DNA of 64,000 nucleotides from an uncultured Verrucomicrobiae bacterium (lineage in GTDB: Bacteria > Verrucomicrobiota > Verrucomicrobiia > Limisphaerales > UBA11358), in assembly GCA_963754775.1 (NCBI GenBank), contig CAVWHM010000023.1:94481-158480 (forward strand), in the 5' to 3' direction. A program made the translations under genes and the position numbers. Below the pieces are notes generated by a model. The model worked only from the letters and a program-made list of their open reading frames with translations. It made no database searches and was not told where the DNA came from. Positions 27,006 through 46,330 of this stretch are shown here, piece by piece (position 1 is the stretch's first letter; the number at the start of each line of letters is the position of its first letter).

Positions 27006-27012
27006 TTATTCC

Positions 27013-27665
27013 TCAACTAAAAAATATTTTTACACAAATATAAACCCAAAAAACGAAAAGCCCAACCACAACCAACGCCAAAAACCCGTTCAGTGAGCCT
27101 TTGACTTCTTCCAACTCTTTATTGGCCTTCTTGTATTCAACAGTCGCTTCCTGCAATCTTCGCCTAGGATTCTTTCCCTCAATCATGAATCTCTTTACAT
27201 CAGGGTCAGTTGCAAAAAAATTCCCGGCGAACTCAAAGAACTTGAAAACTTTGAGAATGCTTTTGAAGCGTAAATCGTTTTTTTTGCCTGCGTATCTTTT
27301 CTCGACCAGCGGCAACAGTTGCTCGATTAAATACTGCGCCTTTTCTTCTTCCTTTAACAGCGGGAGTGTCGTTAAAACCGTCTGTCGAAAATTAGTTATC
27401 CGTTGTTCTTCGGCCATTTGCTCTTGGCGCGCCGCCATTTCGAGTTGTTGGATTTCCAACAAGCGCTGATGTCGAGCCGTGGCTTCTGCTGCGGCACTCG
27501 CTTCGCGTCGCATCTTTTCAACCGCTTCAGCCGTCTGTGCTATGTTAACCGCGCTCGCCACCGCTGCGGCTGCGGCTACTCTTTGGGCGAATAGTTGCTT
27601 CTTCTGCAGTGCCACTTCTTCTTGCCTTCGTTCTTCTTGCGCTGTTTTTCGACGTGTTCATTCAT
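27013..27665 (-). CDS. hypothetical coiled-coil protein with C-terminal TM anchor (low GC)
   Basis: ORF 27013..27615 (ALQKKQLFAQRV...EIQQLEMAARQEQMAEEQ... then the tail LALVVVGLFVFWVYICVKIFF). An ATG at 27665 directly follows the upstream TGA (ttaTGAATGaat) but needs one frameshift to join. GTG 27615 is the alternative start. Confidence 0.45.
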
Positions 27666-28140
27666 AAGCCATGATCGGGTGATTTTGTTCCTCGTGTAGC
27701 TACTCTTCCACCAGTTCGAGACTGATTGTGTTGATTCTCCAAGAGCTTCATGGTTTGCCTTTCGGTGAGCTTCTTTATGCTTCCCCGTGCTGTAAGCTTC
27801 TTGACGAGACAGAAGTCTTGGATTTTAGCCAGCACTAGGCATCGACCACCAGGGGCATCCCTTGTTTTATATTTAACTTCGCACAACCCAACATACCCCT
27901 CGTTAATTTGGTAACAAAAGACGTGGTCTCGCTTCCTACTTCATCAAATAGTGCCTTACCACGCCCCTTATTGAAACCGCGTGCATATGCGTCAAAAAGT
28001 TGAAAAGGTTCTGGCATCGAGAGAAACGTCCGGAATATTCTGCTAGAAAGTATTTCATCCTTGCCTTCCATTTTGGCATTCCAACGGATTGCCCAGTAAT
28101 TTTTTGGTTTCATTTTTTGGCGAGAGTTCTTGTTGTTCAT
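27662..28140 (-). CDS. hypothetical protein (two ORF fragments, one frameshift near 27885), first gene of a low-GC three-gene operon
   Basis: ORF 27835..28140 (MNNKNSRQKMKPKNYWAIRWNAKMEG...FVTKL) continues as INEGYVGLCEVKYKTRDAPGGRCLVLAKIQDF... in ORF 27662..27886. No family recognised. Confidence 0.4.
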
Positions 28141-28156
28141 TTAAATTCGTTGGTTT

Positions 28157-32513: not shown

Positions 32514-33458
32514 TCAGGCTTTCAGGAAAAACCGCCGCTGTTTTTCGCTGATGGGCATCCCCAGTTTCTCCATCACTTGCAGCATGTCTTCCCAGACCTT
32601 GCGTTTCTCGCTCATGGCCTGGTTGCGCAGCAGATACGCCGGATGATACGTGGGCATGAGCGGGATGCCGCGATACGTCTTCCAGGTGCCGCGCAGTTTG
32701 GTGATGCCGATGGTCTTGCCCAGCAACCCTTCCACCGCCGTCGCGCCGAGGGCGACGATGACTTTGGGCCGGATCAAATCAATCTGCTCGTGCAGATACG
32801 GAATGCACGTGGCCATTTCGTCGCTCGTCGGTTTGCGGTTGCCGGCGGATTGGCCGGGCGTGTCCGGACGGCACTTCAAAATGTTGCCGATGTAAACGTC
32901 CGCGCGTTGCAGTCCCGTGGCCTGGATGATTTTCGTCAACAACTGGCCGGCCTTGCCGACGAACGGTTCGCCCTGCTCGTCTTCGTCCGCGCCCGGCGCC
33001 TCACCGATGAACATGAGTTGCGCGTCAATGCTTCCGACTCCAAACGCAACATTTTTGCGCGACGATGCCAGGTGCGGGCATTTAACGCAGGCCAGCGCCC
33101 GTTCGCGCAAGGCGGCGAACGCCGCAGCCTTCGCCTGCGGATCCAGCGGCGGGCTTTGAGTGGGAAGCCTTTCGCCCGGCAGCGTGAGCAGGTTCGCCTG
33201 CTCGGCGGCAGGCTGAGGAGCGCCGGTCTCCGACCCGGCGCGTTTGGGGAGTTCCGTTTGCGCCGGGCCGGAGGCCGGCGCTCCACTCGCGGGAGACTTG
33301 AAATTCGCGATTTGAGGTTTTCCCGCAACCGGCTGCGTCAGGGCACGGAGCGTTTCCGGCAAAACGGCGACGTGGCGCACGCCGCGCGATTTCAAATCTT
33401 CCAGATGTTGAATCGTCGCGTCGATCAGTTGTTCATAGGCGCCGGCCATGGGTGTCAT
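32514..33458 (-). CDS. family-4 uracil-DNA glycosylase with N-terminal extension
   Basis: CVKCPHL, FIGEAPGADEDEQGEPFVGKAGQLL and HPAYLLRN motifs. I place the start at MTPMAG (33458). Confidence 0.8.
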   Translation of the reverse strand: MTPMAGAYEQLIDATIQHLEDLKSRGVRHVAVLPETLRALTQPVAGKPQIANFKSPASGAPASGPAQTELPKRAGSETGAPQPAAEQANLLTLPGERLPTQSPPLDPQAKAAAFAALRERALACVKCPHLASSRKNVAFGVGSIDAQLMFIGEAPGADEDEQGEPFVGKAGQLLTKIIQATGLQRADVYIGNILKCRPDTPGQSAGNRKPTSDEMATCIPYLHEQIDLIRPKVIVALGATAVEGLLGKTIGITKLRGTWKTYRGIPLMPTYHPAYLLRNQAMSEKRKVWEDMLQVMEKLGMPISEKQRRFFLKA

Positions 33459-33493
33459 CGTAGCCCATGGCGCGGCGGCTGCACGAAAATTAT

Positions 33494-33599
33494 CCGGCGC
33501 GTCCGGCAGAACCCTGCCCGGCTCCCTCCGATTTGGTGCAATCCAAGGCTTGTTTCTTGTCGTCCTGATGTGCTGTGTTAATGTTCGTCCCCGACGACC
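33494..33599. repeat. leader of paralog P1: decayed copy of the tRNA-Arg 3' half plus flank
   Basis: ggcgcgtccggcag (33496-33509) is identical to the tRNA 3' end at 61563-61576 and 42082-42095. The rest aligns with the P2/P3 leaders (...ccctccgatttggtgcaatccaaggcttgtttcttgtcgtc...gttcgtccccgacgaccATG). Confidence 0.6.
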
Positions 33600-35690
33600 A
33601 TGAACTTGCGCAACAGCAAAGACTGGATGGCGCACTTTAAATTCAGTTCCCTCCGGACAAGGCTTCTGAATTGCCGCCGTGCGATGGGCAATGCCTTTGG
33701 CGCTTCCGCGGGCGGGACAAAACGGCGGCTTTTGTTTTTTGAGCTGTTCGTGGCGCTTTCACTGGGCGTGACCTACTACTTCCTCGTTGAAAATTTTGCC
33801 ATTGGCAGCCCGAACAACTATACCAACGGCTGGGTATTCACGTCGTGTTCGTTTCCGGGTTTTCATCTGGACAAACTCGGCGATGTCTGGAAAGGGCGGT
33901 TGTCGGGTCTGTTGTTGTCTGGCTGGCTGTTTGATTCCCTGGTTAAAGACAACAAGTTCGGCATTGAACAGTACGAAAGCCTTTTCGGGTTATATCAAAG
34001 TTTGTGGCTGTTTCTGTTGTTCCTGGCCGTCATTTTTGCCTTGCGCCATTCGCTGTTCATCAACCTTGGCATCTTCGCGGGGTTGATGTATGGTTTTACG
34101 CCCGCCTCCGGTCTGTATTTTTATCCGTGGGACCTGCCCGCCACGTTGTTCTTTACACTGGCCGTCCTGTTTTTCGAGCGCCGGCAAATGTGGCTGATGG
34201 CCGCGGCGATTTGCGCCGGGTGTTTCTTCAAGGAAACCGTCCTGGTCTGCGCCTTGCTGGTGCTGTTTGCCAGTCCCTGGAAATGGGGGAAGCGGGTGCT
34301 GGCCTTTGCCGGCATCGTCGCGGTGTATCTGCTGGGAAAGAAATTCCTATTGAGCCAGTTGCACTTCCACGTGGCCGCCTTTTCCATGAACAATGCGACG
34401 AGTCTGACCGGGTTGTTCCGGCCTGCGCTGCTGATTGACAATTTCAAAGCTCTCTTGTCGCCGACTCTCAACCACGCCATTTTTGTCAACGCGGGTACCC
34501 TGGTGGCGGTCCTGGCGCTGGGTTGGCGCAGACGGTTTCTGCCGTACATGGCGGTGATTGTCGTTTATCTGGGAGGACAATTTATGTATGGGGGGCTCAA
34601 TGAATTTAGAATTTTCATGCAGATCCTGCCCTTGAGCCTGATTATGTTGAGTGAGCGGTGGCAGGAATATGCGGGGTCAGGTGCGGCGGAGGCGTTGCCT
34701 GCGGGTTCTGCCCCGGCCTGGGCGTTGCGCGAAACGTTTCCGGTTCTTATGCCGCTGACGATTGTGTTGATCGGCCTGTCCACCGGCATCGCCGCCTGGC
34801 GCTATTATGACATCTGTGAAAACCTCCGGCTCGACGGCCGGGAGCCGTCTGAACTGGGCCGGCGCACTGTTGAACCGGAGGGGCACGTCAGTAATCTCAA
34901 TGTCGAGTATCAAGAATTACGCAGCGAGTATGTCAAAGATGAATTGGAACTGGCCAGGGTTTCTATTGATAACCAGCACCCTTCAGACGCAATAAATCAC
35001 TACGAACGGGTTCTCGAACAGGATACAAATTCAGTGGCCGCGATGAGCGGACTCGCCTGGTTGCGCGCCACAGCTTCCGACCTGCGCCTGCGCAACAACG
35101 GCGAGGCGCTGCGGCTGGCTGAACGGGCCTGTCAACTGACTCAAAACAAGGAAGCCTCTCTGGTCGGAATCCTGGCCGTCGCCTACGCTGAAGCCGGACG
35201 CCTCAGCAATGCAGTTGTCACCGCCCCAAAAGCCCACGCGCTGGCCCTGGCACAGGGGCAAAAAGATGTGTACGTCGAGGCCGAATTGGACCTGGCCAAG
35301 GGCTCCATTGATAACCAGCAGCCTTCAGATGCCATCAATCACTACCAACGGGTTCTCGCGGTGGATGCAGATTCAGTCGCCGCGATGAGCAGTCTCGCCT
35401 GGTTGCGAGCCACAGCTTCCGACCCGCGCCTGCGCAACGGCGACGAGGCGGTGCGGCTGGCTGAGCGGGCTTGTCAACTGACTCAAAGCAAGGAGGCCTC
35501 ACAGGTCGGAATCGCGGCTGCCGCCTACGCTGAAGCCGGACGCCTCAACGATGCTGTTGCCACCGCCCAAAAGGCCTATGCGCTGGCCCTGGCCCAGGGC
35601 CAAAAAGATGTTGCCACAAGAACTGAACAGTTGCTGAAATTGTATAAATCCGGGCAGCCTTACCACCAGGAAGCCAGGCCGGCCCCTTGA
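33600..35690 (+). CDS. paralog P1: uncharacterised polytopic membrane domain (about 400 aa) plus C-terminal TPR region (with internal 114-aa duplication)
   Basis: 696-aa intact ORF with conserved blocks LFLLFLAVIFALRHSLFINLGIFAGL, YFYPWDLPATLFFTLAVLFFERRQMWLMAAAICAGCFFKETVL and GGLNEFRIFMQILPLSLIMLSERW. The TPR tail ends in LLKLYKSGQPYHQEARPAP. Confidence 0.7.
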   Translation: MNLRNSKDWMAHFKFSSLRTRLLNCRRAMGNAFGASAGGTKRRLLFFELFVALSLGVTYYFLVENFAIGSPNNYTNGWVFTSCSFPGFHLDKLGDVWKGRLSGLLLSGWLFDSLVKDNKFGIEQYESLFGLYQSLWLFLLFLAVIFALRHSLFINLGIFAGLMYGFTPASGLYFYPWDLPATLFFTLAVLFFERRQMWLMAAAICAGCFFKETVLVCALLVLFASPWKWGKRVLAFAGIVAVYLLGKKFLLSQLHFHVAAFSMNNATSLTGLFRPALLIDNFKALLSPTLNHAIFVNAGTLVAVLALGWRRRFLPYMAVIVVYLGGQFMYGGLNEFRIFMQILPLSLIMLSERWQEYAGSGAAEALPAGSAPAWALRETFPVLMPLTIVLIGLSTGIAAWRYYDICENLRLDGREPSELGRRTVEPEGHVSNLNVEYQELRSEYVKDELELARVSIDNQHPSDAINHYERVLEQDTNSVAAMSGLAWLRATASDLRLRNNGEALRLAERACQLTQNKEASLVGILAVAYAEAGRLSNAVVTAPKAHALALAQGQKDVYVEAELDLAKGSIDNQQPSDAINHYQRVLAVDADSVAAMSSLAWLRATASDPRLRNGDEAVRLAERACQLTQSKEASQVGIAAAAYAEAGRLNDAVATAQKAYALALAQGQKDVATRTEQLLKLYKSGQPYHQEARPAP

Positions 35691-35718
35691 AACGCAAGCC
35701 AAGCAACCAGGAACTCTT

Positions 35719-36480
35719 ATGAATGAACCCGCGCGCAAAAATGATTTGAAGCTCTTATCCGTCGTCATGCCGGCGCGGGACGAGGAGGGTTGCATCGCCT
35801 CAACGGTTGAGCATCTGCATTTGGAGTTAAGCCTGCAAAAGGTTCCACACGAAATCGTGGTCGTGGACGATGGCAGCACGGATTCGACCTGGAAGATTTT
35901 GTGCGATTTGACCCGGAAAATTCCCGAGCTTGCGCCCATGCAAAATACCGGCTTGCACGGTTTTGGGCGCGCCATCATTGAGGGATTGAACCAGATGAAG
36001 GGCGACGCCGTCGTCATTATGATGGCCGACGAATCGGATGATTGCCGCGACGTGGTGCGTTACTGGAAATTGCTGAACGACGGCTGGGATTGTGTGTTCG
36101 GCAGCCGGTTCATCAAGGGCGGCGGAACGATTGATTATCCGCCGGTAAAACACGTCGTGAACCGGCTGGCAAATTTTTTCATCAAGGTGCTGTTCCACAT
36201 CCCGTTCAATGACACGACCAACGCGTTCAAGGCTTACCGGCGCGAAGTCATTGATGGCTGCCGTCCGCTGATCGCCCCGCACTTCAACCTCACCGTCGAA
36301 CTGCCGCTCAAGGCCATCGTGCGCGGCTTCACCTGGACGACGATGCCCGTCACCTGGAAAAACCGGCGCGCGGGCATGGCCAAATTGAAGATCAAGGAGA
36401 TGGGCAGCCGCTATTTCTTCATCTGTTGCTACGTCTGGCTGGAAAAGTATTTCAGCCGCGGTGATTACCGGAAAAAGTAG
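35719..36480 (+). CDS. family-2 glycosyltransferase (polyprenol-phosphate sugar transferase-like, DPM1/GtrB type)
   Basis: LSVVMPARDEEGCI, VVVDDGSTDST, MADESDD (DxD-like) and NAFKAYRREV. At 253 aa it is a soluble-size GT-A. Confidence 0.75.
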   Translation: MNEPARKNDLKLLSVVMPARDEEGCIASTVEHLHLELSLQKVPHEIVVVDDGSTDSTWKILCDLTRKIPELAPMQNTGLHGFGRAIIEGLNQMKGDAVVIMMADESDDCRDVVRYWKLLNDGWDCVFGSRFIKGGGTIDYPPVKHVVNRLANFFIKVLFHIPFNDTTNAFKAYRREVIDGCRPLIAPHFNLTVELPLKAIVRGFTWTTMPVTWKNRRAGMAKLKIKEMGSRYFFICCYVWLEKYFSRGDYRKK

Positions 36481-36605
36481 CCGGCGTTTCCCGCGAAAGA
36501 GCGGAAGTTTGAGAAGGTGATTCGGGCGGCGCGTGAGCACGTCCCGCCTTATTCGAAAAGTGGGCATTTCGATAATGCCGTCGCCAGCACCTCAAAAGCC
36601 GCTTA

Positions 36606-36716
36606 AAAATCCGACGCGTCCGGCGGAAACCAAACCTGCCGCCTCCCGATGTGGAGCAATCGAAGGCTTTTTCTTGTCGTCACTGTGCGCAGTGCTAAAG
36701 TTCATCCCCAACGACC
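36606..36716. repeat. leader of paralog P2 (decayed tRNA-Arg 3'-half-like repeat plus conserved 5' region)
   Basis: atccgacgcgtccggcggaaaccaaacctgccgcctcccgatgtggagcaatcgaaggctttttcttgtcgtcactgtg...ttcatccccaacgaccATG. It is nearly identical to 38485-38593. Confidence 0.65.
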
Positions 36717-38462
36717 ATGAATTTGCGCAACGGCGCAAGCTGGCTGGCGAACTTGAAACTCAATTCCCTCAAGACAAGGCTTCTGAGTGGCTGGGGCGCA
36801 CTAGGCGGCGTCTTTGGCCGCCGGAATGGCGGTTCATCATCGCTGCTGCTGTTTTTTGAGTTGTTCATGGTGCTTTCACTGAGCGTGTCCTACTTCTTCT
36901 TGGTCAGGACCTACATCACCCGTGGCGATCCTATGAACCGCTACGTGTTCACCGCAGGTTCGGAAAAGTTTTACTCACTGGACCTACCAACAATAAATGA
37001 CGCCTGGAAGGGTCGCCTGTCGGGCTTGTTGTTTTCCGGCGCGATGATTGATTTTGCAGTCAGGGAACACACCGTTACCAAAGAACAAATAGAGCGAGGC
37101 AATAATGTTTTTGGATTGTACCATGCTTTCTGGCTGCTGCTGTTGTTCCTTGCCGTCATTTTCGCCCTGCGCCATTCGCTGTTCATCAACCTCGGCATCT
37201 TCGCCGGACTGGTGTATAATTTTTCGCCCGCCGCCGGTCCGTATTTTTATCCGTGGGACCTCCCAGCCACGTTGTTTTTCACGCTGGCCGTCCTTTTTTT
37301 CGAGCGCCGGCAAATGTTCCTGATGGCGGCGGCGATTTGCGTCGGGTGTTTTTTCAAGGAAACGGTTCTGGCCTGTGCGGTGCTGGCGTTGTTCGCCAGT
37401 CATTGGAAGTGGTGGAAACGGGTTCTACTGTTTGCCGTTCTCGTCGCGGCGTATGTGGCGGGGAAAAATTTTCTGTTGAGCCAGTTGTCCCTCAACGTGT
37501 TTAGCTTTTCAATGGGGTATGCGTCGAATTTTGTTGAGTTGTTTCGGCATACGTTTCTCATTTACAACCTGAAGGTGCTGTTCTCGGCGACCATCAATCA
37601 TGTCATTTTTGCCAACGCTGGAACTTTGGTAGTGGTTCTTGTACTGGGCTGGCGCATGCGTTTTCTCCCCTACATGACGCTGATCTTCGTGTTCCTTGGT
37701 GGACAGCTCATCTACGGCGGGTTCAATGAATTTCGCATTTTCATGGACATCCTGCCCTTGAGCCTGATCCTGTTGAGCGAGCGGTGGCTGGAACATAGCG
37801 GGTCAGTTCCGGTCGGCGATGGATCTGCCGGATTTGCCCCGGCCTGGGCGGTGCGCAAAACTTTTCCAGTTCTGTTCCCGATGACCATCGTGTTGATTGT
37901 GCTCTCCATTGGAGTTGTGGCCCGGCAGTATTATATCATCTTCGAAGACCTCCAGCCTGCTCACCAAGCGCGGTCTGAACTCGGCAAATACAACATCGAA
38001 CTCCAACCAGGCGTCACTGATCCGGAATTGTTGCGAAAGGGGTATGCCGATGCCGAATTGGAACTGGCGAGTATTTCTGTGAGCAACCAGCAGCTTTCAG
38101 ACGCCATCAACCACTACCGCCGGGTGCTTGAATTGGACACGAATTCGGTCCCTGCCTTGAATAATCTTGCCTGGCTGCTGGCCACGGCTTCCGACCCTCA
38201 GTTGCGCAATGGCAAAGAGGCGGTACGCTTAGCCGAACGGGCTTGTCAATCAACTCAATATAAGCAGGCTTTTCTCATCAGAACCCTGGCCGCCGCTTAT
38301 GCCGAAGCCGGACGATTCGACGATGCCGTCGCCACTGCCCAAAAAGCCCGCACGCTGGCGCTGGCACAGGGACAGAAGGAGATTGCGGCACAAAACGAAC
38401 AGTTGCTGGAACTGTATAAATCCGGCCGGGCTTATCATCATGAGGCCAAGCTTGCCCCGTAA
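36717..38462 (+). CDS. paralog P2 of the membrane + TPR protein
   Basis: 581-aa intact ORF, collinear with P1 (same conserved blocks). Its tail is LLELYKSGRAYHHEAKLAP. Confidence 0.7.
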   Translation: MNLRNGASWLANLKLNSLKTRLLSGWGALGGVFGRRNGGSSSLLLFFELFMVLSLSVSYFFLVRTYITRGDPMNRYVFTAGSEKFYSLDLPTINDAWKGRLSGLLFSGAMIDFAVREHTVTKEQIERGNNVFGLYHAFWLLLLFLAVIFALRHSLFINLGIFAGLVYNFSPAAGPYFYPWDLPATLFFTLAVLFFERRQMFLMAAAICVGCFFKETVLACAVLALFASHWKWWKRVLLFAVLVAAYVAGKNFLLSQLSLNVFSFSMGYASNFVELFRHTFLIYNLKVLFSATINHVIFANAGTLVVVLVLGWRMRFLPYMTLIFVFLGGQLIYGGFNEFRIFMDILPLSLILLSERWLEHSGSVPVGDGSAGFAPAWAVRKTFPVLFPMTIVLIVLSIGVVARQYYIIFEDLQPAHQARSELGKYNIELQPGVTDPELLRKGYADAELELASISVSNQQLSDAINHYRRVLELDTNSVPALNNLAWLLATASDPQLRNGKEAVRLAERACQSTQYKQAFLIRTLAAAYAEAGRFDDAVATAQKARTLALAQGQKEIAAQNEQLLELYKSGRAYHHEAKLAP

Positions 38463-38484
38463 ACCGTCCCAATTGCCACGAGAA

Positions 38485-38593
38485 AATCCGACGCGTCCGG
38501 CGGAAACCAAACCCGCCACCTCCCGATGTGGAGCAATCGAAGGCTTTTTCTTGTCGTCACTGTGTGTGGTGCTAATGTTCATCCCCGACAACC
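38485..38593. repeat. leader of paralog P3 (decayed tRNA-Arg 3'-half-like repeat plus conserved 5' region)
   Basis: cgcgtccggc is identical to the tRNA 3' end. Over the next 33 nt I count 19 ungapped matches to the tRNA half. The following aatcgaaggctttttcttgtcgtc also parallels the sequence right of the 40394 repeat (aatcgagggtttgtttctccgcgt). Confidence 0.6.
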
Positions 38594-40368
38594 ATGAATT
38601 TGCGCATCGGCGCAAGCTGGCTGCCGAACTTGAAACTGAATTCCCTCAAGACAAGGCTTCTGAATTGCGGGGGCGCGCTGGGCCGCATTTTTAGCCGTCG
38701 GAATGGTGGCCCCTCATCCTGCTGCTGTTTTTTGAATTGTTCATGGTGCTTTCATCTGAGCGTGTCCTACTTCTTTCTGGTCAGAAACTACATCACCCGT
38801 GGCGATACCATGAACCGCTATGTGTTCAATGCCGGTTCGGAAAAGTTCTACCAACTGGACCAACCCATCATGGGTGCGCACTGGGACAGCCGCCTGTCGG
38901 GCTTGCTGTTTTCCGGCGCGATGATTGATTTTGCAGTCAGGGAACACACCCTTACCGGGGAACAAATACTGGAGCGATTCAACAATGTTTTCGGATTGTA
39001 CCATGCTTTCTGGCTGCTGCTGTTGTTCCTGGCCGTCACTTTCGCCTTGCGCCATTCGCTGTTCATCAACCTCGGCATCTTCGCGGGATTGATGTATAAT
39101 TTTTCGCCCATCTCCGGGCCGTATTTTTATCCATGGGACATGCCGGCGATGTTGTTTTTTACACTGGCCGTTCTGTTTTTTGAGCGCCGGCAAATGTGGC
39201 TGATGGCGGTCGTGACTTGCGCCGGGTGTTTTTTCAAGGAAACCGTTTTGGTCTGCGCCCTGCTGGTGCTGTTCGCCGGTCACTGGAAGTGGGGAAAGCG
39301 GATTCTAACCTTTGCCGGCATCGTCACCGTGTACGTGCTGGGGAAAAAACTTCTGCTGAGCCAGTTACACCTCCAGGCGGCGGCGCTCTCACTGGGAGAT
39401 GCGACGAATTTGCGGGGGTGGCTCGCCCCCGCGCTCCCCATGGAAAACCTCGTTGAAAATCTCAAGGTGCTTTTTTCACCGACGCTCAACAGCGTCATTT
39501 TCGCCAACGCGGGAACCCTGGCGGCGGTGCTGGTGCTGGGCTGGCGCAGGCGTTTCCTGCCTTACATGACGGTAATCCTGGCGTTCATCGCCGGGTTGGT
39601 TCTGCTTCCTCTGAAGCCTGCCCGGCATTACTGAAGTTCGCGTTTTCATGCAAATCCTGCCATTGAGCCTCATCCTCTTGAGTGAGCGCTGGCTGGAACA
39701 GGCCGGGTCAGTTCCTGCCGGCGAGGGATCTGCTGGATTTACCCCGGCCTGGGCGGTGCGCAAGACCTTTCCGGTTCTGCTCCCAATGACTATCCTGCTG
39801 ATTGCGCTCTCCACCGGAGTTGCCGCCTGGCAGTATCATATCATCTTTGAAGACCTCCAGCCCGGCCACCGGGCGCGGTCTGAACTTGGCAAATACAACA
39901 TCGGGCCCCAAGGACCTTATCAGCAACCAGGAATTCTTACGTTCGGAGAATTCCTTTGCTGAATTAAAACTGGGCATGATTTCCATGGAAAACGGGCAGG
40001 ATTCCGCCGCCATCAATCATTACCAACGGGTGCTTGAGTCGGACACAAATTCAGTCATCGCCCTGAACAATCTTGCCTGGTTGCTGGCCACGGCTTCCGA
40101 CTCCGGCTTGCGCAACGGCCAGGAGGCAGTGCGTCTGGCCGAACAGGCCTGTCAATTAACTCATTACCAGGATGCCGCTTTGATCGAAACCCTGGCCGCC
40201 GCTTACGCCGAAGCCGGTCGCTTCAACGATGCGGTCGCCACCGCCCAAAAGGTCCGCACCGTGGCGCTGGCGCACGGACAGAAAGAGATTGCGGCAAGAA
40301 ATGAACAGTCCCTGGAACTGTATAAATCCGGTCGGGCTTACCACCAGGAAGCCAGGCCTGCCCCGTAA
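38594..40368 (+). CDS. paralog P3 of the membrane + TPR protein; 2 apparent frameshifts (about 39620 and 39930)
   Basis: ORFs 38594..39634, 39648..39962 and 39802..40368 are collinear with P2. The tail is LELYKSGRAYHQEARPAP. Confidence 0.6.
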
Positions 40369-40393
40369 ACCGTCCCCGAAGCCACGAGAAATT

Positions 40394-40440
40394 CTGGCAA
40401 GTCCGGCAGGACTTGAACCTGCAATCTTCTGATCCGAAGT
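40394..40440 (-). repeat. 47-bp copy of the tRNA-Arg 3' half (old att remnant), 3 mismatches to the 42080 copy
   Basis: ctggcaagtccggcaggacttgaacctgcaatcttctgatccgaagt compared with ctggcgcgtccggcaggacttgaacctgcaaccttctgatccgaagt. Confidence 0.8.
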
Positions 40441-40710
40441 AATCGAGGGTTTGTTTCTCCGCGTTTCTGTGGAGTGCGAGAAATTGCATCAAACACTTGT
40501 AAATTCAGCTCTTTATGTGTTGTGTATTCTGCCAAAACCGGGCGAAACCAGTAGTAAAAGCCGGTGACGTGTTACTACTCGTGTTGCGAGTGCTGGGATG
40601 AGGCTTTGAATCACCCGTCGCCCGCCTCGGATGCGCACAGGAAATCTTCCGCACCGGACTCGCGGTTCAACCCGCCGGCTGTTCAAAAGTGTGGGCAGCG
40701 ATGCCGGGCG

Positions 40711-41847
40711 TCAGAGCGAATCGGCGAACTTCTGCATCGCCTCCTCCTGTTTCTCGATGCTTTCCACCAGGCGGAACTGCGTGCGGCAGCGGTCGAGGTT
40801 GTGCCGCGGCCGGTGCACGCGGAAGTAAGTGTCGCCGCTGAGGAAATCCGTCAGGAACCGGATGCCGATGGTGAAGGTGATGAGTTTGCCGGAAAAGGCG
40901 ATGAGCGCGCGCTCCGCCTTGGTCAGAAACGGCCCGGTCCCTTCGAGATAACCCCGGGCCAGCGCCTTGAACATCGGCATGCCCATCTGGACCTTCGACA
41001 GGTCGAGCTCGTCCTCCAGCGTTGGGCTGGTCGTGGTGCGAATCATGTCGCCGAAATCATAGAGCACGCAGCCCGGCATGACCGTGTCGAGGTCCACCAC
41101 GCACATGGCTTTGCCGGTCTCGATGTCGAGCATCACGTTGTTGAACTTGGTGTCATTGTGTGTGATGCGCTCCGGGATTTTGCCCTTGGCCAGGCCGTGA
41201 AGGATCACATCCACGATTTTCTCCTGTTTACAGGCAAACTGGATTTCGGCTTTGGCCTCGACCGCGCGGTTGAACTTGTCCTCCGCGACGGCCTTTTGCA
41301 GCGCCGCAAAGCGCCGGCGCGTGTCGTGAAAATGAGGAATCGTCTCCGCCAGGCGCTTGCCGGCCAGGTCCACCAGCAGGCTTTGGAACCGCCCGAAGGC
41401 CTTGCCCGCTTCATAGGCCTGGATCGGCGATTCCACCGTCTCGTAGGTGCGCGCGCGCTCGACAAACGCGAACGTGCGCCAGCATTCGCCGGCGGGCGAC
41501 GTGAAATACGTCCGGCCCTCGCGCGTCGGGATGACCGTGAGCGTGCGGCGCGACACGTCCCTCACACCATGCTCCGCCAGCTTGCGGCGCTGGTGGGAGG
41601 TAACGCGCTCGATGTTGTCCATCACCGCGTCCGGATGCTTGAACACCTTCGTGTTGAGCTTCTGGTGCACATAGCGCACGTGTACGCCGCCCTGGTTGTA
41701 GGCGGCGATGTAGGTTTCGTTGATGTGCCCAATCTTGCACGGCTCGGCGTGGAGCAGGTCGCCGTAGATCTGAAACTGCCGCGAGACTTCGAGAATTTGC
41801 GCTTCCTGGTAGTCGTCCATAAGGTCGGGGTCATTAAACACCAGCAC
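40711..41847 (-). CDS. APH-fold phosphotransferase, N-acetylhexosamine-1-kinase-like
   Basis: 378-aa intact ORF with KIGHINETY, ITHNDTKFNNVMLD (catalytic loop) and VVDLDTVMPG. The resemblance to NahK/LnpB-type kinases is from memory. Confidence 0.6.
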   Translation of the reverse strand: MLVFNDPDLMDDYQEAQILEVSRQFQIYGDLLHAEPCKIGHINETYIAAYNQGGVHVRYVHQKLNTKVFKHPDAVMDNIERVTSHQRRKLAEHGVRDVSRRTLTVIPTREGRTYFTSPAGECWRTFAFVERARTYETVESPIQAYEAGKAFGRFQSLLVDLAGKRLAETIPHFHDTRRRFAALQKAVAEDKFNRAVEAKAEIQFACKQEKIVDVILHGLAKGKIPERITHNDTKFNNVMLDIETGKAMCVVDLDTVMPGCVLYDFGDMIRTTTSPTLEDELDLSKVQMGMPMFKALARGYLEGTGPFLTKAERALIAFSGKLITFTIGIRFLTDFLSGDTYFRVHRPRHNLDRCRTQFRLVESIEKQEEAMQKFADSL

Positions 41848-42079
41848 AGCCAGAACTCAAGCAAATCGCCAGCCCGCACCGCTGCCGGATAGTCAGGGCG
41901 GGTTCACCGTTGTCTTGTCCTGTTCCTTCTTCCCTCTGTTGTTTCGGCGCGTGGCGTGGACAATATTTGCAGCCGTGCCAAAGTGGAGCGTTTCAAAACG
42001 CCGGCTGCTGCTTTTGGTACAACTCGCCGATTTTGCGAGTCGCTGAGGGGACAGAAAAACGCGAAAAACCCAATAAAAT

Positions 42080-42126
42080 CTGGCGCGTCCGGCAGGACTT
42101 GAACCTGCAACCTTCTGATCCGAAGT
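42080..42126 (-). repeat. 47-bp direct repeat equal to the 3' half of tRNA-Arg (distal att site of the integrative element)
   Basis: 46/47 identical to 61561-61607. The only difference is a/g at the base corresponding to tRNA position 39. Identity ends exactly after ccgaagt, in the anticodon loop. Confidence 0.9.
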
Positions 42127-42167
42127 TATTTCCTTGACAGTTTTGACGGGTTGCCTAAAATCGCCTC

Positions 42168-43670
42168 ATGCAGCGAGAAAAGCAAGCAAATATGCCTATG
42201 AAATCAATATCTTTGAGCAATCCGGCAAAACCCGCCGCAACCCCGGTTGCAACGGGTCGCAACCTGAAAAGTGGCAGCAAAGTGGCAGCATTTTCCGACG
42301 AGCACGAACCCGCAAAATGGGCGGGCCGTTGGTCGAATCTGGCCGCCGACCACGTGAAGCGATGGGAAAAGCGTCTCTACGTCCCGAAATCCGGCCACGA
42401 GGGGGATGTTGTTGAAGCCCGCCGACTCGCCGTGCGGATTCAACACCTGGGCAGGCGCGAAGAATTTCGGTTCGAGACTACGAACCGCCAGGCTGCCGCC
42501 ATTCAAGCACTGGAAGTGTTCCGTTTCCTCAAATCGAATGGCTGGCCGGCCACGCTCGCCAAATACAAGCCCGAAGTCGAAAAGGTGAAACTCAACACCA
42601 CGATTGGCGATTACCTCGTCGCCGTCCATGATACGAACCGCCTGCGCTCCCGCACTTTTTTGAACTATCAAAACGCGCTGCGAACCGTCGCCGCCGAAAT
42701 CTTCGCCGTGAAGCTGGACAAAGGCGCGTCGAAATTCGATTACCGGAGCGGCAACCGCGAGCAAAGCGGGCGCGCCACATGGATTGGGAAGATTGACGCG
42801 CACCGGCTGGGCGAACTCACGCTGGAAAAGGTCACGGATTGGAAGCGCAAACGCGTCGTCCGCGCCGGAAACTCGCCCGCTGCCATCGCCTCCGCCAAGC
42901 GCACGGTCAACTCTTACATACGCTGTGCCCGCTCACTGTTCGCCCCCGGCATCGTCCGCGAAGTGAAGGGGCTGACGCTGCCCGACACGCTGCCCTTTGT
43001 CGGCGTTGAACTCGAAGAAACCGGCTCGATGAAATACGTCAGCAAGATCAACGCGCAAACCCTCATCGCCGCCGCAAAGCGCGACCTCAAAACCAAAGAC
43101 CCGGAAGCCTACAAAGCTTTTCTGCTTGGTCTGTTCGCTGGCCTGCGAAAAGCCGAAATTGATTCGTTGGAATGGGGGATGATTGATTTTTCGGACAACA
43201 TCATCCGGCTGGAACAAACCGAATGGCTGCACCTGAAAACTGACGATTCCGCCGCCGAAATCACCGTTGACCCCGAAGTGCTGGTCGAACTTCGCGCCAT
43301 GATACCGGAGCCAACAGACAAGCCGGCACAATGGAAGCAATTTGTTCTCGTCGGCACTCGTCCGCCGCGTCCCGAATCACCCCGGCCCTATTACCGCTGC
43401 GAAGAAACGTTTGAGCGGTTGAACGCATGGCTGCGGAGCAAGGGCATCACCGCCAACAAACCGCTGCACGAACTGCGGAAGGAACTCGGCGCCCTGATTG
43501 CGACTGAGCAGGGCATATACGCCGCGAGCCGTTTTTTGCGGCATTCCGACATATCCACCACCGCGCGCCACTACGCCGACCACAAGGCACGCATCAGCGT
43601 CGGTTTAGGCAAATACCTCGACACGTCCATCGGTGTTCCCTCGCAGCGAGCCAAAGCCGCCGTCGCATGA
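42168..43670 (+). CDS. tyrosine recombinase / phage-type integrase
   Basis: 500-aa intact ORF with C-terminal catalytic signature GLRKAEI (R), HELRKELG (HxxR), FLRHSDISTT (H) and ARHYAD (Y). The true start is uncertain, because the arm-type repeat lies at codons 34-41. Confidence 0.85.
   Translation: MQREKQANMPMKSISLSNPAKPAATPVATGRNLKSGSKVAAFSDEHEPAKWAGRWSNLAADHVKRWEKRLYVPKSGHEGDVVEARRLAVRIQHLGRREEFRFETTNRQAAAIQALEVFRFLKSNGWPATLAKYKPEVEKVKLNTTIGDYLVAVHDTNRLRSRTFLNYQNALRTVAAEIFAVKLDKGASKFDYRSGNREQSGRATWIGKIDAHRLGELTLEKVTDWKRKRVVRAGNSPAAIASAKRTVNSYIRCARSLFAPGIVREVKGLTLPDTLPFVGVELEETGSMKYVSKINAQTLIAAAKRDLKTKDPEAYKAFLLGLFAGLRKAEIDSLEWGMIDFSDNIIRLEQTEWLHLKTDDSAAEITVDPEVLVELRAMIPEPTDKPAQWKQFVLVGTRPPRPESPRPYYRCEETFERLNAWLRSKGITANKPLHELRKELGALIATEQGIYAASRFLRHSDISTTARHYADHKARISVGLGKYLDTSIGVPSQRAKAAVA
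42267..42291 (+). promoter_or_regulatory. 25-bp repeat aaaaGTGGCAGCAaaGTGGCAGCAt (candidate arm-type integrase binding site), left copy
   Basis: Perfectly identical to 61465-61489 in the same orientation. Internally it holds two GTGGCAGCA direct repeats. Confidence 0.5.
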
Positions 43671-44128
43671 AGAAACAGGCTGCTCCAAATCAAAGTGCCT
43701 TGCGTCGGAATCTTCTGGAACGCATCCGCGAGGCTTCGTTCCCTGCCGATTTTGACAAGTTCCATTGGCGGGAGTTGGAAGACGCCGGGTTGCTGGGTGG
43801 CTTTGTGAATCAGGGCTTGGACGCAAAGACATTCCGGCTCTTCGTGTTGCTCGCCACACAAGCAAAGGAACTACGCAAACAGCGCGACCGGCTGGCTCGC
43901 CGCGTTGAACTCTTGGAGCACTACCATTCGCCCCAGTGGGATGCCGTTTGGGAAGAACCATGCCCTATCAAAGCGGCCGCGCTTCGGCGCGAAGCGGAGG
44001 CAGACGACGCTCGCATCAACGAGCAGCGCCGCAAACAACGCGATCCGCTCGCGGGCTTTTTGGAAATGTTGGGCAAGGTTAAACGGCGCGACTGGGAGTT
44101 TCGAGACAAACGGCGGCGTCATCGCTGA
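43667..44128 (+). CDS. hypothetical protein (island)
   Basis: 153-aa ORF sharing ATGA with the integrase stop. Basic, coiled-coil-like C-terminus. No family recognised. Confidence 0.45.
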   Translation: MKKQAAPNQSALRRNLLERIREASFPADFDKFHWRELEDAGLLGGFVNQGLDAKTFRLFVLLATQAKELRKQRDRLARRVELLEHYHSPQWDAVWEEPCPIKAAALRREAEADDARINEQRRKQRDPLAGFLEMLGKVKRRDWEFRDKRRRHR

Positions 44129-44155
44129 TTCCGAGCCGTCTTGTGGCACGAGCCA

Positions 44156-44596
44156 ATGTCCGTAATGGACTACCACGAAGCGACGGGGTTAAGCCGCCGC
44201 ACAATTCAGAACAGGCTCGACCGTCTTGGTGCCCGACCAATCGCCGGGCGCAAGCGGCCTAACGAGCCAGCGCGCTATGGTCCGGGAGCGAATCATGCAT
44301 TGCTGTGCGACTGGCTTATCCGATACGTCAAAAACCCGAATGCGCGCCGCGGATGGCTCGCTCGCACACTGGTTCACTGCCAACACGAGACGCCGACGCA
44401 TTATGCTCAATTGTGTGAATCCATCCGGCCAGTGTTGGAATCTTTGAGTATTCAAACGACGGCGCAACGCCAGCAATTCGTTCGTTACTTGGGGGAGTGC
44501 AAAGTGATACTCCATCCACCGCCACCGCCGCCGACTTTTTTGGAAGACCCTCTTTCCATCCTAGGCATAAGCGGCCTCCAGGTCGCGTCTCAATAA
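44156..44596 (+). CDS. hypothetical HTH-containing protein (island)
   Basis: MSVMDYHEATGLSRRTIQNRLDRLG is helix-turn-helix-like. The remainder is unrecognised. Confidence 0.45.
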   Translation: MSVMDYHEATGLSRRTIQNRLDRLGARPIAGRKRPNEPARYGPGANHALLCDWLIRYVKNPNARRGWLARTLVHCQHETPTHYAQLCESIRPVLESLSIQTTAQRQQFVRYLGECKVILHPPPPPPTFLEDPLSILGISGLQVASQ

Positions 44597-44808
44597 CGTC
44601 GGCTGGCACTGTCCATTTGGTCATGGGCTGTGGGAAAATCCGGGCTTCTCCAAGCTTGTTTTTTTCTTTTGAGAAACATTCCGGCCAATTTCCGTGGGAA
44701 AACCGTCCCTCTTTTTCGCTTTAGTGCGTCCGTGTGACTTACGTTGTGGCCGTCAACACTGCGTTGACCTTCGTTGTGTGCTGCAACGATGAGCCGGGGA
44801 ATAAACAG

Positions 44809-45057
44809 ATGATTGATCAAGTTGAACAGCCGGCAGCCGGCAGGCCTGCCGCGAGCAAAACCACCCGTGGGACAGACGGCAGCAAATTCTTCACGCCGCG
44901 CCAGGTGGCAGACCGCTGGGGTTGGCATGTGGAAAGTGTGCGCCGGGCCATTCGCCAAAGGCGGATTGAATCGGTCGTGCTTTCCCGCCGGCTGCTCGTG
45001 CCCGTTGAGGAGGTCGAGCGGCTTGAACGCGAAGGACGCATAGCCCGCGCTGCTTGA
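44809..45057 (+). CDS. excisionase-family / MerR-like HTH DNA-binding protein
   Basis: KFFTPRQVADRWGWHVESVRRAIRQRRIESVVLSRRLLVPVEEVERLE matches the excisionase-type helix-turn-helix pattern. Confidence 0.6.
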   Translation: MIDQVEQPAAGRPAASKTTRGTDGSKFFTPRQVADRWGWHVESVRRAIRQRRIESVVLSRRLLVPVEEVERLEREGRIARAA

Positions 45058-45119
45058 AAGCCGGTCGTCTTCACCGACCAAATCGGTGAAGACGACTGGC
45101 AAAGCAGGATTACCAGATT

Positions 45120-45764
45120 ATGAGTAACAGCGACACGGAGTCACAGAGTTACGGAGACACTGACGACACGCAGGACTCGAAGGACGTTCCGCCCCTTGCA
45201 ACGTCCGTAAAGACGCTGCAAGAGGCGGTCCAACTCTCCCTCAAGGATGGCCTGACTGACAAGTGCCTGTTCATCTTCGCACGTGCGCTCAAGTCTTTTG
45301 AAAGAACTCATAACCGCCCCCTGCCGCCAAAAGAGTTGGACGCAGCTTTCGCGCTTTGGTGGAGCGCGGCGACGCCGCTGCTGACGCCTGCTGACGACTT
45401 CGACGAATGGCGACTCGATTTCCTGGCCACGTTCTCAAAGACGAAGTCACCGCTCGGCTCGAACTCACTTCAGGAAGCCATACTTCGTGCCAAGGCCGGT
45501 CCAATGCCGCCTCAAGCCGAACGTTACACCAATCCCAAAATCAAGCTCCTGGTCGCCGTCTGCTGCCACCTACAACTGCTGCAAGGCGATAGCCCCTTTT
45601 TCCTCAGCGCCCGCGCCGCCGCAAAGGTCATGGAGATGAAGAATCCTGAGCAGGCAAGTGCCATATTGACCGGACTTGTGTTCGATGGTGTTTTAACCGA
45701 AGTGAAGAAGGGCACACGCGCCGGAAGGCGGGCCACCCGATTTCGGTTCAACTTCGGCGAGTGA
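45120..45764 (+). CDS. hypothetical protein (island), acidic N-terminus, possible winged-helix C-terminus
   Basis: 214-aa intact ORF. No family recognised. Confidence 0.4.
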   Translation: MSNSDTESQSYGDTDDTQDSKDVPPLATSVKTLQEAVQLSLKDGLTDKCLFIFARALKSFERTHNRPLPPKELDAAFALWWSAATPLLTPADDFDEWRLDFLATFSKTKSPLGSNSLQEAILRAKAGPMPPQAERYTNPKIKLLVAVCCHLQLLQGDSPFFLSARAAAKVMEMKNPEQASAILTGLVFDGVLTEVKKGTRAGRRATRFRFNFGE

Positions 45765-45955
45765 TCTTGTAGCGCACGCGGCAGCTCCGCGCCGCCGCGC
45801 CGGCACACGGCCCGCCCGTGCGCGAGACGCAGTGGCGGGATGGTGCCCGGATGCGCCTCGGCTCGATTCCGGCCCGAAACGCGCGGCACACGCAACCCGA
45901 CACAACCCATAGTGCAAGCAGGCTTGCTGGGCAGACCGCCTCCTTTTGAAATGAA

Positions 45956-46330
45956 TTTTTCCGCCAGCCAATGGGTTTTAAGTGCGGGTAGATAGACCTC
46001 CTGCCTGGGGCAATACCCGCTGCCCTTGTTTGAAGGGGGCCAGTTTTCCCCGGGCCCGCCTGCCTTTCTTTTTAACTGGCGCACTTTTCCCCGCCAGCGA
46101 ATCTCGCCGACAGCCAAACCCAGCCTGTCCTTTTGGAAAACTTTTCCGGGCGATCTAACCCGTGTCCGCCGTCGAACGCTCGCAAATGTCCGTTTTGAGC
46201 CTGCTGCTTTTATTAAGCCGTGCTACTTTTTTATACATGTATTTTTACTCGCGTACTTTTCTCAGAGCGCCGCTATTTCGGCCCGTTGCCGGTCCGTCCT
46301 TTTCAGAACTTGGATACTTTTCCCGGCTTC
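45956..46330. repeat. ORF-poor region with about 10 dispersed CTTTTCC / ACTTTTC motifs (iteron-like)
   Basis: tttttccgccagcc 45956; cagttttccccgggcc 46041; cacttttccccgccagcg 46082; gtccttttggaaaacttttccgggcg 46127-46152; tacttttttata 46224; cgtacttttctcag 46252; gtccttttcagaac 46296; gatacttttcccggc 46313. Confidence 0.5.

Follow-up and report, generated by a model that had tools for sequence, protein, structure and literature searches.

Decayed tRNA-Arg 3' ends upstream of tandem membrane+TPR genes point to an older layer of accretion at a tRNA-Arg gene in an uncultured Verrucomicrobiota lineage

Tandem accretion of integrative elements at tRNA and tmRNA genes, with att-flanked remnants that lack an integrase (CIMEs), has been described for the ICESt1-related elements of Streptococcus thermophilus (Pavlovic et al. 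2004, Bellanger et al. 2011; PMC5704250), and arrays of genomic islands are known at the ssrA gene of Dehalococcoides (McMurdie et al. 2011, PMC3146451). In this paper we analyse a stretch of 64,000 nucleotides, called the window throughout, from an uncultured Verrucomicrobiota lineage. Three tandem paralogs of a membrane+TPR gene (P1, P2 and P3) are each preceded there by a decayed copy of the 3' half of a tRNA-Arg gene. These relics are a well-documented example of a known process, tandem accretion at a tRNA gene.

Several features of the ICESt1/CIME systems resemble those found here. The 3' end of the target gene is present in several co-oriented copies and the youngest element adjoins the live gene, an older segment (40395-42126 in the window) has kept both att copies without an integrase, and unrelated integrases, here the 500-aa integrase of the window and that of an element family we call family X, share one core. 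Unlike in those systems, the oldest att copy here is 30-45% diverged, is probably no longer a recombination substrate and seems to have been multiplied with a cargo gene by homologous recombination, and no conjugation or mobilisation genes were seen in our locus. The Dehalococcoides arrays are like our locus in that the 3' end of a single-copy RNA gene recurs many times, as direct repeats, across a hypervariable region. Also common to both are strain-variable islands, an integrase module beside attL, and an older distal part that is fixed, syntenic between strains and free of island signatures. The Dehalococcoides arrays rely on a serine recombinase and 20-bp repeats, whereas tyrosine integrases and a 46-nt core are found here, and their fixed old region holds no detectable repeat, whereas our relic is detectable and copied onto paralogs (PMC3146451).

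The live gene, its near-perfect core copies and the right-hand backbone are as follows.

61562-61638, minus strand: live tRNA-Arg(TCG) gene (ARAGORN; Rfam, 66.8 bits)
61562-61607, plus-strand coordinates: att core, the 3' 46 nt of the tRNA-Arg(TCG) gene
42081-42126, plus strand: displaced core copy, which matches the gene at 45/46 positions and forms the distal att junction of the 19.4-kb integrase island
42127-61561: 19.4-kb integrase island, the youngest
42168-43670, plus strand: tyrosine integrase of the youngest island (Pfam Phage_integrase, E 1.3e-9)
40395-40440, plus strand: displaced core copy, the attL core of a family X element that has decayed (it differs from the ancestral tRNA at 3 positions and from the live gene at 4)
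61734-63287, plus strand: BrkB/Rrf2 fusion gene (Pfam), right backbone anchor beside the tRNA

The core takes in the tRNA from its CCA end back to the base that precedes the anticodon loop, so that it starts at a canonical sublocation and stops at the tRNA 3' end, as att sites do. The shared block is 46 nt long, base 47 being different in the gene and in the 42081 and 40395 copies, and the decayed relics end on the right at the same boundary. All five extra copies lie on the plus strand, on the 3' side of the minus-strand gene, and thus form direct repeats. Williams reportedly defined, in Nucleic Acids Research in 2002, an anticodon-loop sublocation class of tRNA integration sites. Our repeat resembles that class in that it begins at the edge of the anticodon loop and extends to the 3' end, which means that the gene is rebuilt by the element's copy, and in this respect the locus is not unusual. 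In the half of the live tRNA-Arg that the element supplied, the loop-closing pair is an A.C mismatch.

An earlier note on this DNA had counted one mismatch for the 42081 copy against the gene; it is not a change in the copy. Over the part compared, the 42081 copy is 100% identical to the tRNA-Arg genes of L047-L049, and base 61599 (plus strand) of the live gene differs from the relatives' genes and from all displaced copies; the mismatch thus arose in the live gene. The integrase at 42168-43670 is 92% identical to an integrase adjoining a core copy in L048, where the orthologous 42081-type core adjoins this orthologous integrase, and it is unrelated to the family X integrase. Orthologues of the 40395 core exist in L011 (9187-9232) and L051, and the BrkB/Rrf2 gene adjoins tRNA-Arg in L047-L050 too.

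The left part of the interval contains the paralogs and the segments that we read as relics.

32514-33452, minus strand: UDG-family gene (Pfam UDG, E 4.5e-41), left backbone anchor of the variable interval
33494-33539, plus strand: oldest decayed core relic, at the boundary of UDG backbone and variable region (leader profile; intact core at the equivalent position in L053)
33540-33599, plus strand: P1 leader, homologous to the family X arm (profile)
33600-35690, plus strand: P1, membrane+TPR paralog, 696 aa, TPR block duplicated
35719-36480, plus strand: GT2 glycosyltransferase between P1 and P2 (Pfam Glycos_transf_2, E 2.8e-19)
36611-36657, plus strand: decayed core relic upstream of P2 (alignment, profile)
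36658-36716, plus strand: P2 leader, homologous to the family X arm (profile), containing TTGTCG-N16-TAAAGT
36717-38462, plus strand: P2, membrane+TPR paralog, 581 aa
38488-38534, plus strand: decayed core relic upstream of P3 (profile match 38483-38534)
38535-38593, plus strand: P3 leader, homologous to the family X arm (profile)
38594-40368, plus strand: P3, membrane+TPR paralog, pseudogene with two frameshifts (tblastn with the intact L011 orthologue Pb, frames 2>3>1)

The earlier note had read the leaders as decayed copies of the tRNA-Arg 3' half and as an older layer of accretion at that gene, and both readings are borne out. The P1 relic retains the 14-mer of the note, GGCGCGTCCGGCAG, at 33496-33509 exactly as in the tRNA, and the P2 and P3 relics retain CGCGTCCGGC with 26/36 matches in local alignment. 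Against dinucleotide-shuffled controls the leaders clearly stand out (z = 3.4-7.6 across score schemes, 5.2-7.5 under the 1/-1 scheme). When both strands of the window were scanned with the tRNA segment, the three leaders were the top non-trivial matches, one chance match near 30720 on the minus strand scoring equally (14). An independent repeat search put the leaders of P2 and P3 into one family, D10, together with the three tRNA copies. An nhmmer profile built only from 12 leader segments of the window and its relatives, without any tRNA copy, found in the leader-masked window 42075-42120 (E 8.8e-7), 61562-61601 (4.4e-5) and 40389-40435 (1.7e-4) as its best three matches, all on the plus strand, the next reaching only E 0.069. 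Among 10 tRNA genes this profile matched tRNA-Arg alone. Aligned without a gap, the 12-segment consensus agrees with the 42078-42127 copy at 35/49 positions, and the relic copies in different relatives retain different bases of the tRNA. Judged by these comparisons, the 5' parts of the leaders are confirmed as descendants of the tRNA-Arg 3' half, and they mark an older accretion layer at this gene.

What follows the relics is equally informative, and the 40395 core provides the reference for it.

40441-40600, plus strand: family X left arm from the decayed element, with AATCGAGGGTTTGTTTCT... followed by the inverted repeats AGTAGTAA...TTACTACT
40520-40819, minus strand: weak C-terminal remnant of a family X integrase (the L054 integrase as tblastn query matches 112 aa at 29% identity, E 0.002)
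40711-41847, minus strand: APH-family kinase gene (Pfam APH, E 5.9e-14)

The relic has the extent of the att core, and homology then runs without a gap into an element arm rather than into the tRNA 5' half: about 50 nt match the left arm of the integrase+primase elements of family X, which in relatives occupy this tRNA-Arg gene with their core intact. In L052, L053 and L054, too, the flank at 40441-40600 comes after an intact core, with a different sequence to the left of the core in each. When the masked window was searched with a profile of the leader continuation, the best match lay at 40441-40484, beginning with the first base after the core (E 0.035), and this profile also matches the arms of L051-L054 from the first post-core base (best E 3.6e-6, in L053). 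The parallel once drawn between the leaders and the sequence right of the 40395 repeat is thus real, but that sequence is the left arm of family X and no P leader. At the intact junctions in L053 and L054 an integrase ends 48 nt from the core and a Toprim/DUF3631 primase is present. An integrase thus adjoins the core at these homologous sites, as it does at 42168-43670; among the window's open reading frames and Pfam matches, no integrase or other mobility gene adjoins the P leaders, which is why we call them relics. On the strength of the roughly 50 nt of arm homology, the old layer probably belonged to family X.

The segment 40395-42126 carries two att copies, with only the APH gene and the integrase trace between them and an integrase island next to it, as is typical of CIMEs and tandem accretion. 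The APH gene is its sole intact gene and is conserved between two cores in L011 and L051. The weak integrase remnant overlaps the 3' end of the APH reading frame.

The left boundary is defined by synteny. UDG is a conserved neighbour in L006, L015, L016, L018, L050 and L053, and orthologues of P1 adjoin it in L006, L011, L015, L016 and L018; the GT2 gene is syntenic with P1 in L006, L011, L016 and L018. L050 has the order DedA-UDG-GH106-tRNA-Arg-BrkB, with 3 kb from UDG to the tRNA and no P genes. In L053 the place next to UDG that the P1 relic takes in the window is occupied by an intact core, an element arm and an integrase. Along the UDG flank synteny with both stops about 25 nt to the left of the relic position. 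From the short distance in L050 and the intact core in L053 it follows that the intervening 28 kb in the window are accreted DNA and that every leader represents a decayed attL, made up of core and arm. In L006, L016 and L018 no tRNA-Arg gene turned up less than 10 kb from P1; its linkage to P1 there is suggested by shared flanking genes on other contigs. L016 and L049, for instance, which are different contigs, can be joined in this way to give a presumed order UDG-P1-GT2-...-tRNA-Arg-BrkB.

The site has been active in close relatives: the islands at the same tRNA-Arg gene vary among them, and no fewer than three different elements have entered it. One further island is seen in L047, and the genome of L011 and L048 contains four core copies and an extra family X island. 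The latter lies between the att-flanked segment and the neighbouring element, which indicates that the inner core was used or retained. All relatives are metagenome assemblies, in which tandem repeats are prone to assembly collapse.

The best overall explanation, which we hold with good confidence, is that the interval from UDG (33452) to tRNA-Arg (61562) was accreted by site-specific integration at the tRNA 3' end and that the relic was then copied along with P. Elements with tyrosine integrases would recombine at the anticodon-loop edge, and with each integration the displaced 46-nt tRNA 3' segment would come to lie at the far end of the insert, towards UDG, joined to the left arm of the element. 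An old family X integration would have left an attL (core plus an arm of about 50 nt) beside UDG, after which the integrase was lost. As P starts about 60 nt past the core, the former arm would have become its immediate upstream region, and the old attL would then have decayed at about the speed of silent sites. Tandem duplication, unequal crossing-over and gene conversion would have carried the relic and the P 5' region to the other paralogs, so that it now stands before P1, P2 and P3. A later integration would have brought the 40395 core with the family X remnant (arm, integrase trace and APH gene), and a further one the 42081 core with the present 19.4-kb integrase island. The true sequential layers would accordingly be three: the ancient relic, the 40395 repeat with its decayed integrase-less remnant, and the 42081 repeat with the island. 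Of this account, the homology, its boundaries, the synteny and the mosaic structure of the paralogs are demonstrated, while the sequence in which things happened, how recombination proceeded and a possible promoter function of the arm are our inference. Excision and integration at the decayed copies are expected to be lost.

A rather improbable alternative is that each P unit arrived by a separate P-carrying integration at tRNA-Arg, the relics decaying independently according to age. This is also what the earlier note had proposed, with decay increasing from 38.49 over 36.61 to 33.50 kb. The repeated structure of trailer, core, arm and P is what serial entry of one element type predicts, the site has accepted several elements in close relatives, and since family X elements all give the same junction of core and arm, identical junctions are no proof of a single origin. 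The scheme is contradicted for P2 and P3, whose relics are identical at 53/55 positions and have all their differences from the tRNA in common, at only 34-38/55 matches between the P3 relic and the tRNA copies. P1-type and P2/3-type relics share 9 derived states, and their changed sites overlap well above chance (P = 3e-4), all of these states being transitions, some of which could be parallel changes. There is no decay gradient over the three leaders (30-38/55 matches to tRNA copies, the lower ungapped count of P1 being partly due to an indel). Moreover, P2 and P3 come from separate, old clades of the P family. In L006 and L016 the P3 orthologues are inverted and have neither the relic nor the leader nor the first ~58 codons, implying that the relic was grafted onto P3. 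Identity profiles of the paralogs are mosaic: Pa of L011 has a P2/3-type leader on a P1-type body. P copy number varies among close relatives, and at an RNase HII locus P genes form tandem arrays that have no relic at all.

The near-identity of the P2 and P3 relics, the common derived states, the mosaicism and the relic-free P3 orthologues together suggest that the relic spread with the P genes by tandem duplication and recombination and not by three separate insertions. Two independent old integrations, one P1-type and one P2/3-type, may instead have taken place. The proposed order of decay survives for the gene, the 42081 copy, the 40395 copy and the leaders taken as one class; the leaders are not independent time points. 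The other mechanism offered at the time, amplification of a cassette by recombination between flanking repeats, comes closer to the copying among paralogs favoured here.

Our results show how the growth of a genomic-island hotspot can be dated and ordered in an uncultured lineage, and that an att relic can remain recognisable over species-level divergence. They also call for caution, because repeated att-like relics need not equal the number of integrations when recombination among tandem paralogs multiplies them.

It is quite unlikely that the segment was retained for a function, as a structured leader RNA or a protein-binding operator, with its tRNA likeness incidental or secondary. The best-preserved part of the relic is GCGCGTCCGGC, and two common transitions create an imperfect palindrome, TCCGNCGCGTCCGGCGGA, of which one pair co-varies in two sequences. 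Among P1 orthologues, however, the relic (42-73% identity) changes no more slowly than fourfold sites (43-87%), at 73-90% for the P1 leader, and its decay looks neutral, at about the silent-site rate. RNAalifold gave no consensus structure (-9.6 kcal/mol, covariation term 0.02), cmscan against Rfam matched no family except tRNA itself, and P genes elsewhere manage without the relic.

Still less probable is an ordinary tandem duplication of P without an integrase, its right breakpoint falling inside the tRNA. P3 ends 26 nt from the tRNA 3' fragment, which would fit P and the tRNA having once been convergent neighbours, and tandem duplication is common in the P family. Against this, the relic stops at the att-core boundary and continues into an integrase-element arm known from four other contexts, and the leftmost relic lies at the backbone boundary by UDG, where L053 has an intact attL. 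Chance likeness of GC-rich sequences, for which the equal pairwise score near 30720 might speak, is refuted for practical purposes by the profile matches (E 9e-7 to 2e-4) in the same orientation and register, the different tRNA bases kept by the relatives' copies, the consensus agreement and the intact site in L053.

Returning to accretion followed by copying of the relic, it is possible, though we would not bet on it, that the former attL arm, perhaps with part of the tRNA-derived core, was exapted as the promoter or 5' region of P and now travels with it. An integration-site arm would then be a regulatory cassette, and P paralogs would be shuffled as ready-to-express units, which makes this a concrete and testable case of a mobile-element end possibly turned into a gene's promoter region. 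The hexamers of TTGTCG-N16-TAAAGT in the P2 leader were read by eye from the sequence, and a consensus promoter scan made no call there. All 148 bp upstream of P1 are accounted for by the UDG start flank, the relic and the leader derived from the arm, and this last part is better conserved than the relic. Leader positions 8-63 precede P genes at loci without a detectable tRNA part (L012, L017, L022), so that it is an inference which of the two, P leader or element arm, gave rise to the other. P2 is about 90% identical in nucleotides to a gene located at a tRNA-Leu locus of another genome, L012.

The window holds a single tRNA gene, tRNA-Arg(TCG), on the minus strand at 61562-61638. Its 3' 46 nt begin at the final base of the anticodon stem's 5' strand, extend to the encoded CCA (plus-strand reading TGGCGCGTCCGGCAGGACTTGAACCTGCAACCTTCTG[G/A]TCCGAAGT) and recur at 42081-42126 and 40395-40440. 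We call this segment the core, and the decayed copies of it before the membrane and TPR paralogs P1, P2 and P3 relics. The relevant features are as follows.

Features between the UDG-family gene and the BrkB/Rrf2 gene
32514-33452, minus strand, UDG-family gene
33600-35690, plus strand, P1 (696 aa)
35719-36480, plus strand, GT2 glycosyltransferase
36717-38462, plus strand, P2 (581 aa)
38594-40368, plus strand, P3 (two frameshifts)
40395-40440, plus strand, core copy
40711-41847, minus strand, APH-family kinase
42081-42126, plus strand, core copy
42168-43670, plus strand, tyrosine integrase
to 61561, mosaic island with ResIII helicase, Mrr, split methylase, DnaE fragments, transposase fragment, PEP-CTERM protein and DUF72
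61562-61638, minus strand, tRNA-Arg
61734-63287, plus strand, BrkB/Rrf2 fusion gene

The single mismatch that the earlier note saw between the 42081 copy and the gene exists, but the odd base is that of the live gene: the tRNA-Arg genes on three contigs of relatives (L047-L049) match the 42081 copy exactly. The live gene has C at tRNA position 40 (plus-strand 61599), where the genes of 4 relatives and all displaced cores have T. With this C, the stem pair that closes the anticodon loop is A.C instead of A-U. The latest island contributed the gene half that holds this position.

Our results confirm that the likeness of the P leaders to the tRNA-Arg 3' half is real. The leader strings quoted in the earlier note lie where it placed them, and its claim that the 5' parts of the leaders resemble the tRNA 3' end is upheld by both shuffle and profile tests. 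Local alignments of the tRNA segment against each leader exceed dinucleotide shuffles with z = 3.4-7.6 depending on the score scheme, and with z = 5.2-7.5 under a 1/-1 scheme. When the whole window is scanned on both strands with the tRNA segment, the leaders are the best non-trivial matches, with one chance match tying in score, and repeat finding independently placed the tRNA copies and the leaders of P2 and P3 in one family (D10). The profile was built from the tRNA-like part of 12 homologous segments of leaders, taken from the window and from related loci L006, L011, L013, L015, L016 and L018, and was run against the window after its leaders had been masked. The top three matches, all on the plus strand and with near-full profile coverage, are 42075-42120 (E 8.8e-7), the tRNA gene at 61562-61601 (E 4.4e-5) and 40389-40435 (E 1.7e-4); the next match has E 0.069. 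Of ten tRNA genes with differing specificities, the profile matches that for Arg alone. The consensus of the 12 segments is identical to the 42078-42127 copy at 35/49 positions without gaps, and the tRNA bases kept differ by copy: GCAACCTTC.GAT in P1 of L011, GAAC..GCAAT in L013 and in Pb, a further P gene of L011, and CCTTCTGAT in L006. The leader does not hold a whole decayed tRNA, as the homology ends at the core boundary and is followed by the arm, the element-end sequence adjoining the core.

The earlier note also held that the sequence right of the 40395 repeat parallels the continuation of the leaders. This likeness is real, and in the masked window the best match to a profile built from the leader continuation is 40441-40484, from the first base past the core onward, but the flank itself is the arm of an element. 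Sensitive blastn and three-frame translation found no remnant of a P coding sequence right of 40484, where the flank was later shown to consist of element arm and an integrase trace. Scanning a metagenome collection for the junction CTTCTGRTCCGAAGTAATCGA recovered 4 contigs (L051-L054), in all of which the core is followed by the common sequence AATCGAAGGC.TGTTTCTC... The first, L051, is from a close relative and has the layout of the window, P-trailer, core, APH and core. The other three have near-intact cores (97.8-100% identity to the 42081 copy) and three unrelated left flanks. L051, L053 and L054 have in common CATCAAACGCC and inverted AGTAGTAA/TTACTACT repeats, and in L053 and L054 an opposite-strand tyrosine integrase ends 48 nt from the core, followed in L054 by a Toprim/DUF3631 primase. 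We name elements with this core and arm junction family X; the extra island of L011, whose integrase is 78% identical, is a further member. Positions 1-50 of the P-leader profile match the L053 arm (E 3.6e-6), and a weak integrase trace lies at 40520-40819. We identify 40441-40600 as the arm of a decayed family X element, and each P leader as a decayed attL composed of tRNA core and element arm. An integron-cassette reading was set aside, no IntI-type integrase being seen among the proteins scanned.

Comparison of the UDG-P1 interval and of tRNA-Arg in relatives speaks for accretion at this tRNA. The BrkB/Rrf2 gene neighbours tRNA-Arg in four related contigs. In L050 the order is DedA, UDG, GH106, tRNA-Arg and BrkB, and the 3 kb between UDG and the tRNA hold neither a P gene nor a relic. 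In L053, UDG is followed after about 60 nt by an intact core, arm and integrase, and the distance of this core to the shared backbone motif CACAAAAATTA.TTGTTCACAA equals, within a few nt, that of the decayed relic in L006. The order UDG, relic with leader, P1 is kept in five further species-level genomes or metagenome contigs (L006, L011, L015, L016 and L018), with GT2 next in all except L015 and with P1 identity down to about 64-67%; the content right of GT2 is different in every lineage. L016 and L049 have flanking genes in common, from which we infer, across two contigs, the order UDG, P1, GT2, P3 (inverted), further genes, Ig protein, tRNA-Arg and BrkB for this genome type. On the L011/L048 contig, cores lie at about 9.19, 10.93 and 25.79 kb, and the tRNA follows near 33.2 kb. 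Three inserts are thus stacked there: the APH remnant, an island of family X, and one with an integrase that shows 92% identity to that of the window. L047 has yet another island at the tRNA. These differing islands and stacked inserts make the UDG-tRNA-Arg interval an active integration hotspot, with the P1 relic at its old outer boundary. Two further differences lie outside this interval. In L006-L009 a 513-aa gene of unknown function, absent from the window, stands between DedA and UDG (L006 1695-3236), and a low-GC block of the window at ~22640-28150 (46-54% vs about 58-60%), missing from the otherwise syntenic L018, is probably another insertion.

How did the relic come to stand before three paralogs? 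The evidence favours copying over one integration per paralog. Between the P2 and P3 relics 53/55 positions are identical, and every difference from the tRNA is common to both. The consensus relics differ from the tRNA at 17/49 sites (P1-type) and 15/49 sites (P2/3-type); 11 of the changed sites overlap (hypergeometric P = 3e-4), and at 9 of them the base is the same. These nine shared states are without exception transitions, and it is possible that some are parallel changes. A bootstrapped neighbour-joining tree of residues 59-340 places P1-P3 in three different old clades. Window P1 groups with L006, L016, L018 and Pa of L011; window P3 with Pb of L011 and with the L006 and L016 genes that are inverted; P2 clusters with P2 of L011 and with a gene from a tRNA-Leu locus, L012. 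The paralogs are mosaic: identity of P2 to P3 is 87-91% at the 5' end and 63-67% in the middle, P2 and the L012 gene are 86-93% identical in the body and unrelated upstream, and Pa has a P1-type body with a P2/3-type leader. In L006 and L016 the P3 orthologues have neither relic nor leader, and their first ~58 codons are missing. Copy number varies from 3 in the window to 4 in the 95%-identical relative L011, and other metagenomes have relic-free tandem P arrays beside RNase HII. From relic identity, mosaicism and copy-number variation we conclude that the relic was carried along with the 5' region of P as paralogs were tandemly duplicated and recombined with one another. The older accretion layer at the same tRNA that the earlier note proposed stands, but the truly sequential layers number only three: the relics taken as one old class, the copy at 40395 and the copy at 42081. 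The near-identical P2 and P3 relics, the shared derived states and the mosaic paralogs speak against three leaders as separate layers, each from its own integration.

The inverted P3 orthologues (L006 7438-9120; L016 9935-11650) are oriented opposite to P1-GT2 and have a different N-terminus and upstream region. The broken paralog differs by relative: P3 of the window has two frameshifts (38594-40368) and its L011 orthologue is intact, while L011 has a frameshift in P1 (509-2598) and has lost the ATG of Pa (5558-7195). This suggests redundancy within the P array.

The two parts of the leader evolve differently. Among P1 orthologues, pairwise identity is 42-73% in the tRNA-derived relic, 43-87% at fourfold-degenerate gene sites and 73-90% in the arm-derived leader. 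The tRNA-derived part thus decays at the silent-site rate or faster, and the arm-derived leader appears to be under constraint. In a Jukes-Cantor estimate from the deepest pair of orthologues, with 49% identity at fourfold sites, a neutral relic would be about 67% identical to a frozen tRNA if integration just preceded the deepest split; about 55-70% is observed. RNAalifold found no supported structure, an Rfam search matched the tRNA alone, and a consensus promoter scan did not pick out the hexamers of the leader. In most copies the best-kept part of the relic (33491-33508, 36608-36625, 38485-38502) is the imperfect palindrome TCCGNCGCGTCCGGCGGA; in window P1 it ends in CAGA. The palindrome arises from two transitions common to most relic copies, one of its pairs co-varies from G-C to A-T in L013 and L015, and it may have a secondary operator role.

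The locus is a case of tandem accretion at a tRNA gene that includes a fossil att site and a remnant flanked by att copies but lacking an integrase (CIME). Such accretion with CIMEs is known for ICESt1-related elements (review PMC5704250), and the ssrA island arrays of Dehalococcoides, in which the distal, older region has become fixed, are a close parallel (PMC3146451). Less usual here are that the relic is still detectable across species, that recombination multiplied it along with a cargo paralog, and that an element arm is the immediate upstream region of the P genes. Arm-derived leader is also found before P genes at loci without the tRNA part (L012, L017, L022). We tentatively raise the idea that a former attL arm might have been exapted as promoter or 5' region of the P family, although we consider this somewhat less probable than its opposite.

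P-family genes in other genomes are unusually often found ~100-550 nt downstream of a complete tRNA gene, as at L012, L019, L031, L036 and L042 (Leu, Glu, Glu, Gln and Ser) and also at L001 and L010. No repeats of the 3' ends of these tRNAs were found within 10 kb, and 5 of the 8 tRNAs in about 600 kb of P flanks fall within this zone. The 19.4-kb island of the window holds DnaE-like Pol III alpha fragments (54467-56210), a split N6/N4 methylase (50556-52174) and a truncated DDE transposase (57326-58240); in L052 a full-length DnaE-like gene (3909-7637) ends at a core copy. At 58583-59336, ~3 tandem copies of a 264-nt unit, two of them at 98% identity, lie within an ORF with a PEP-CTERM motif (58663-59439).
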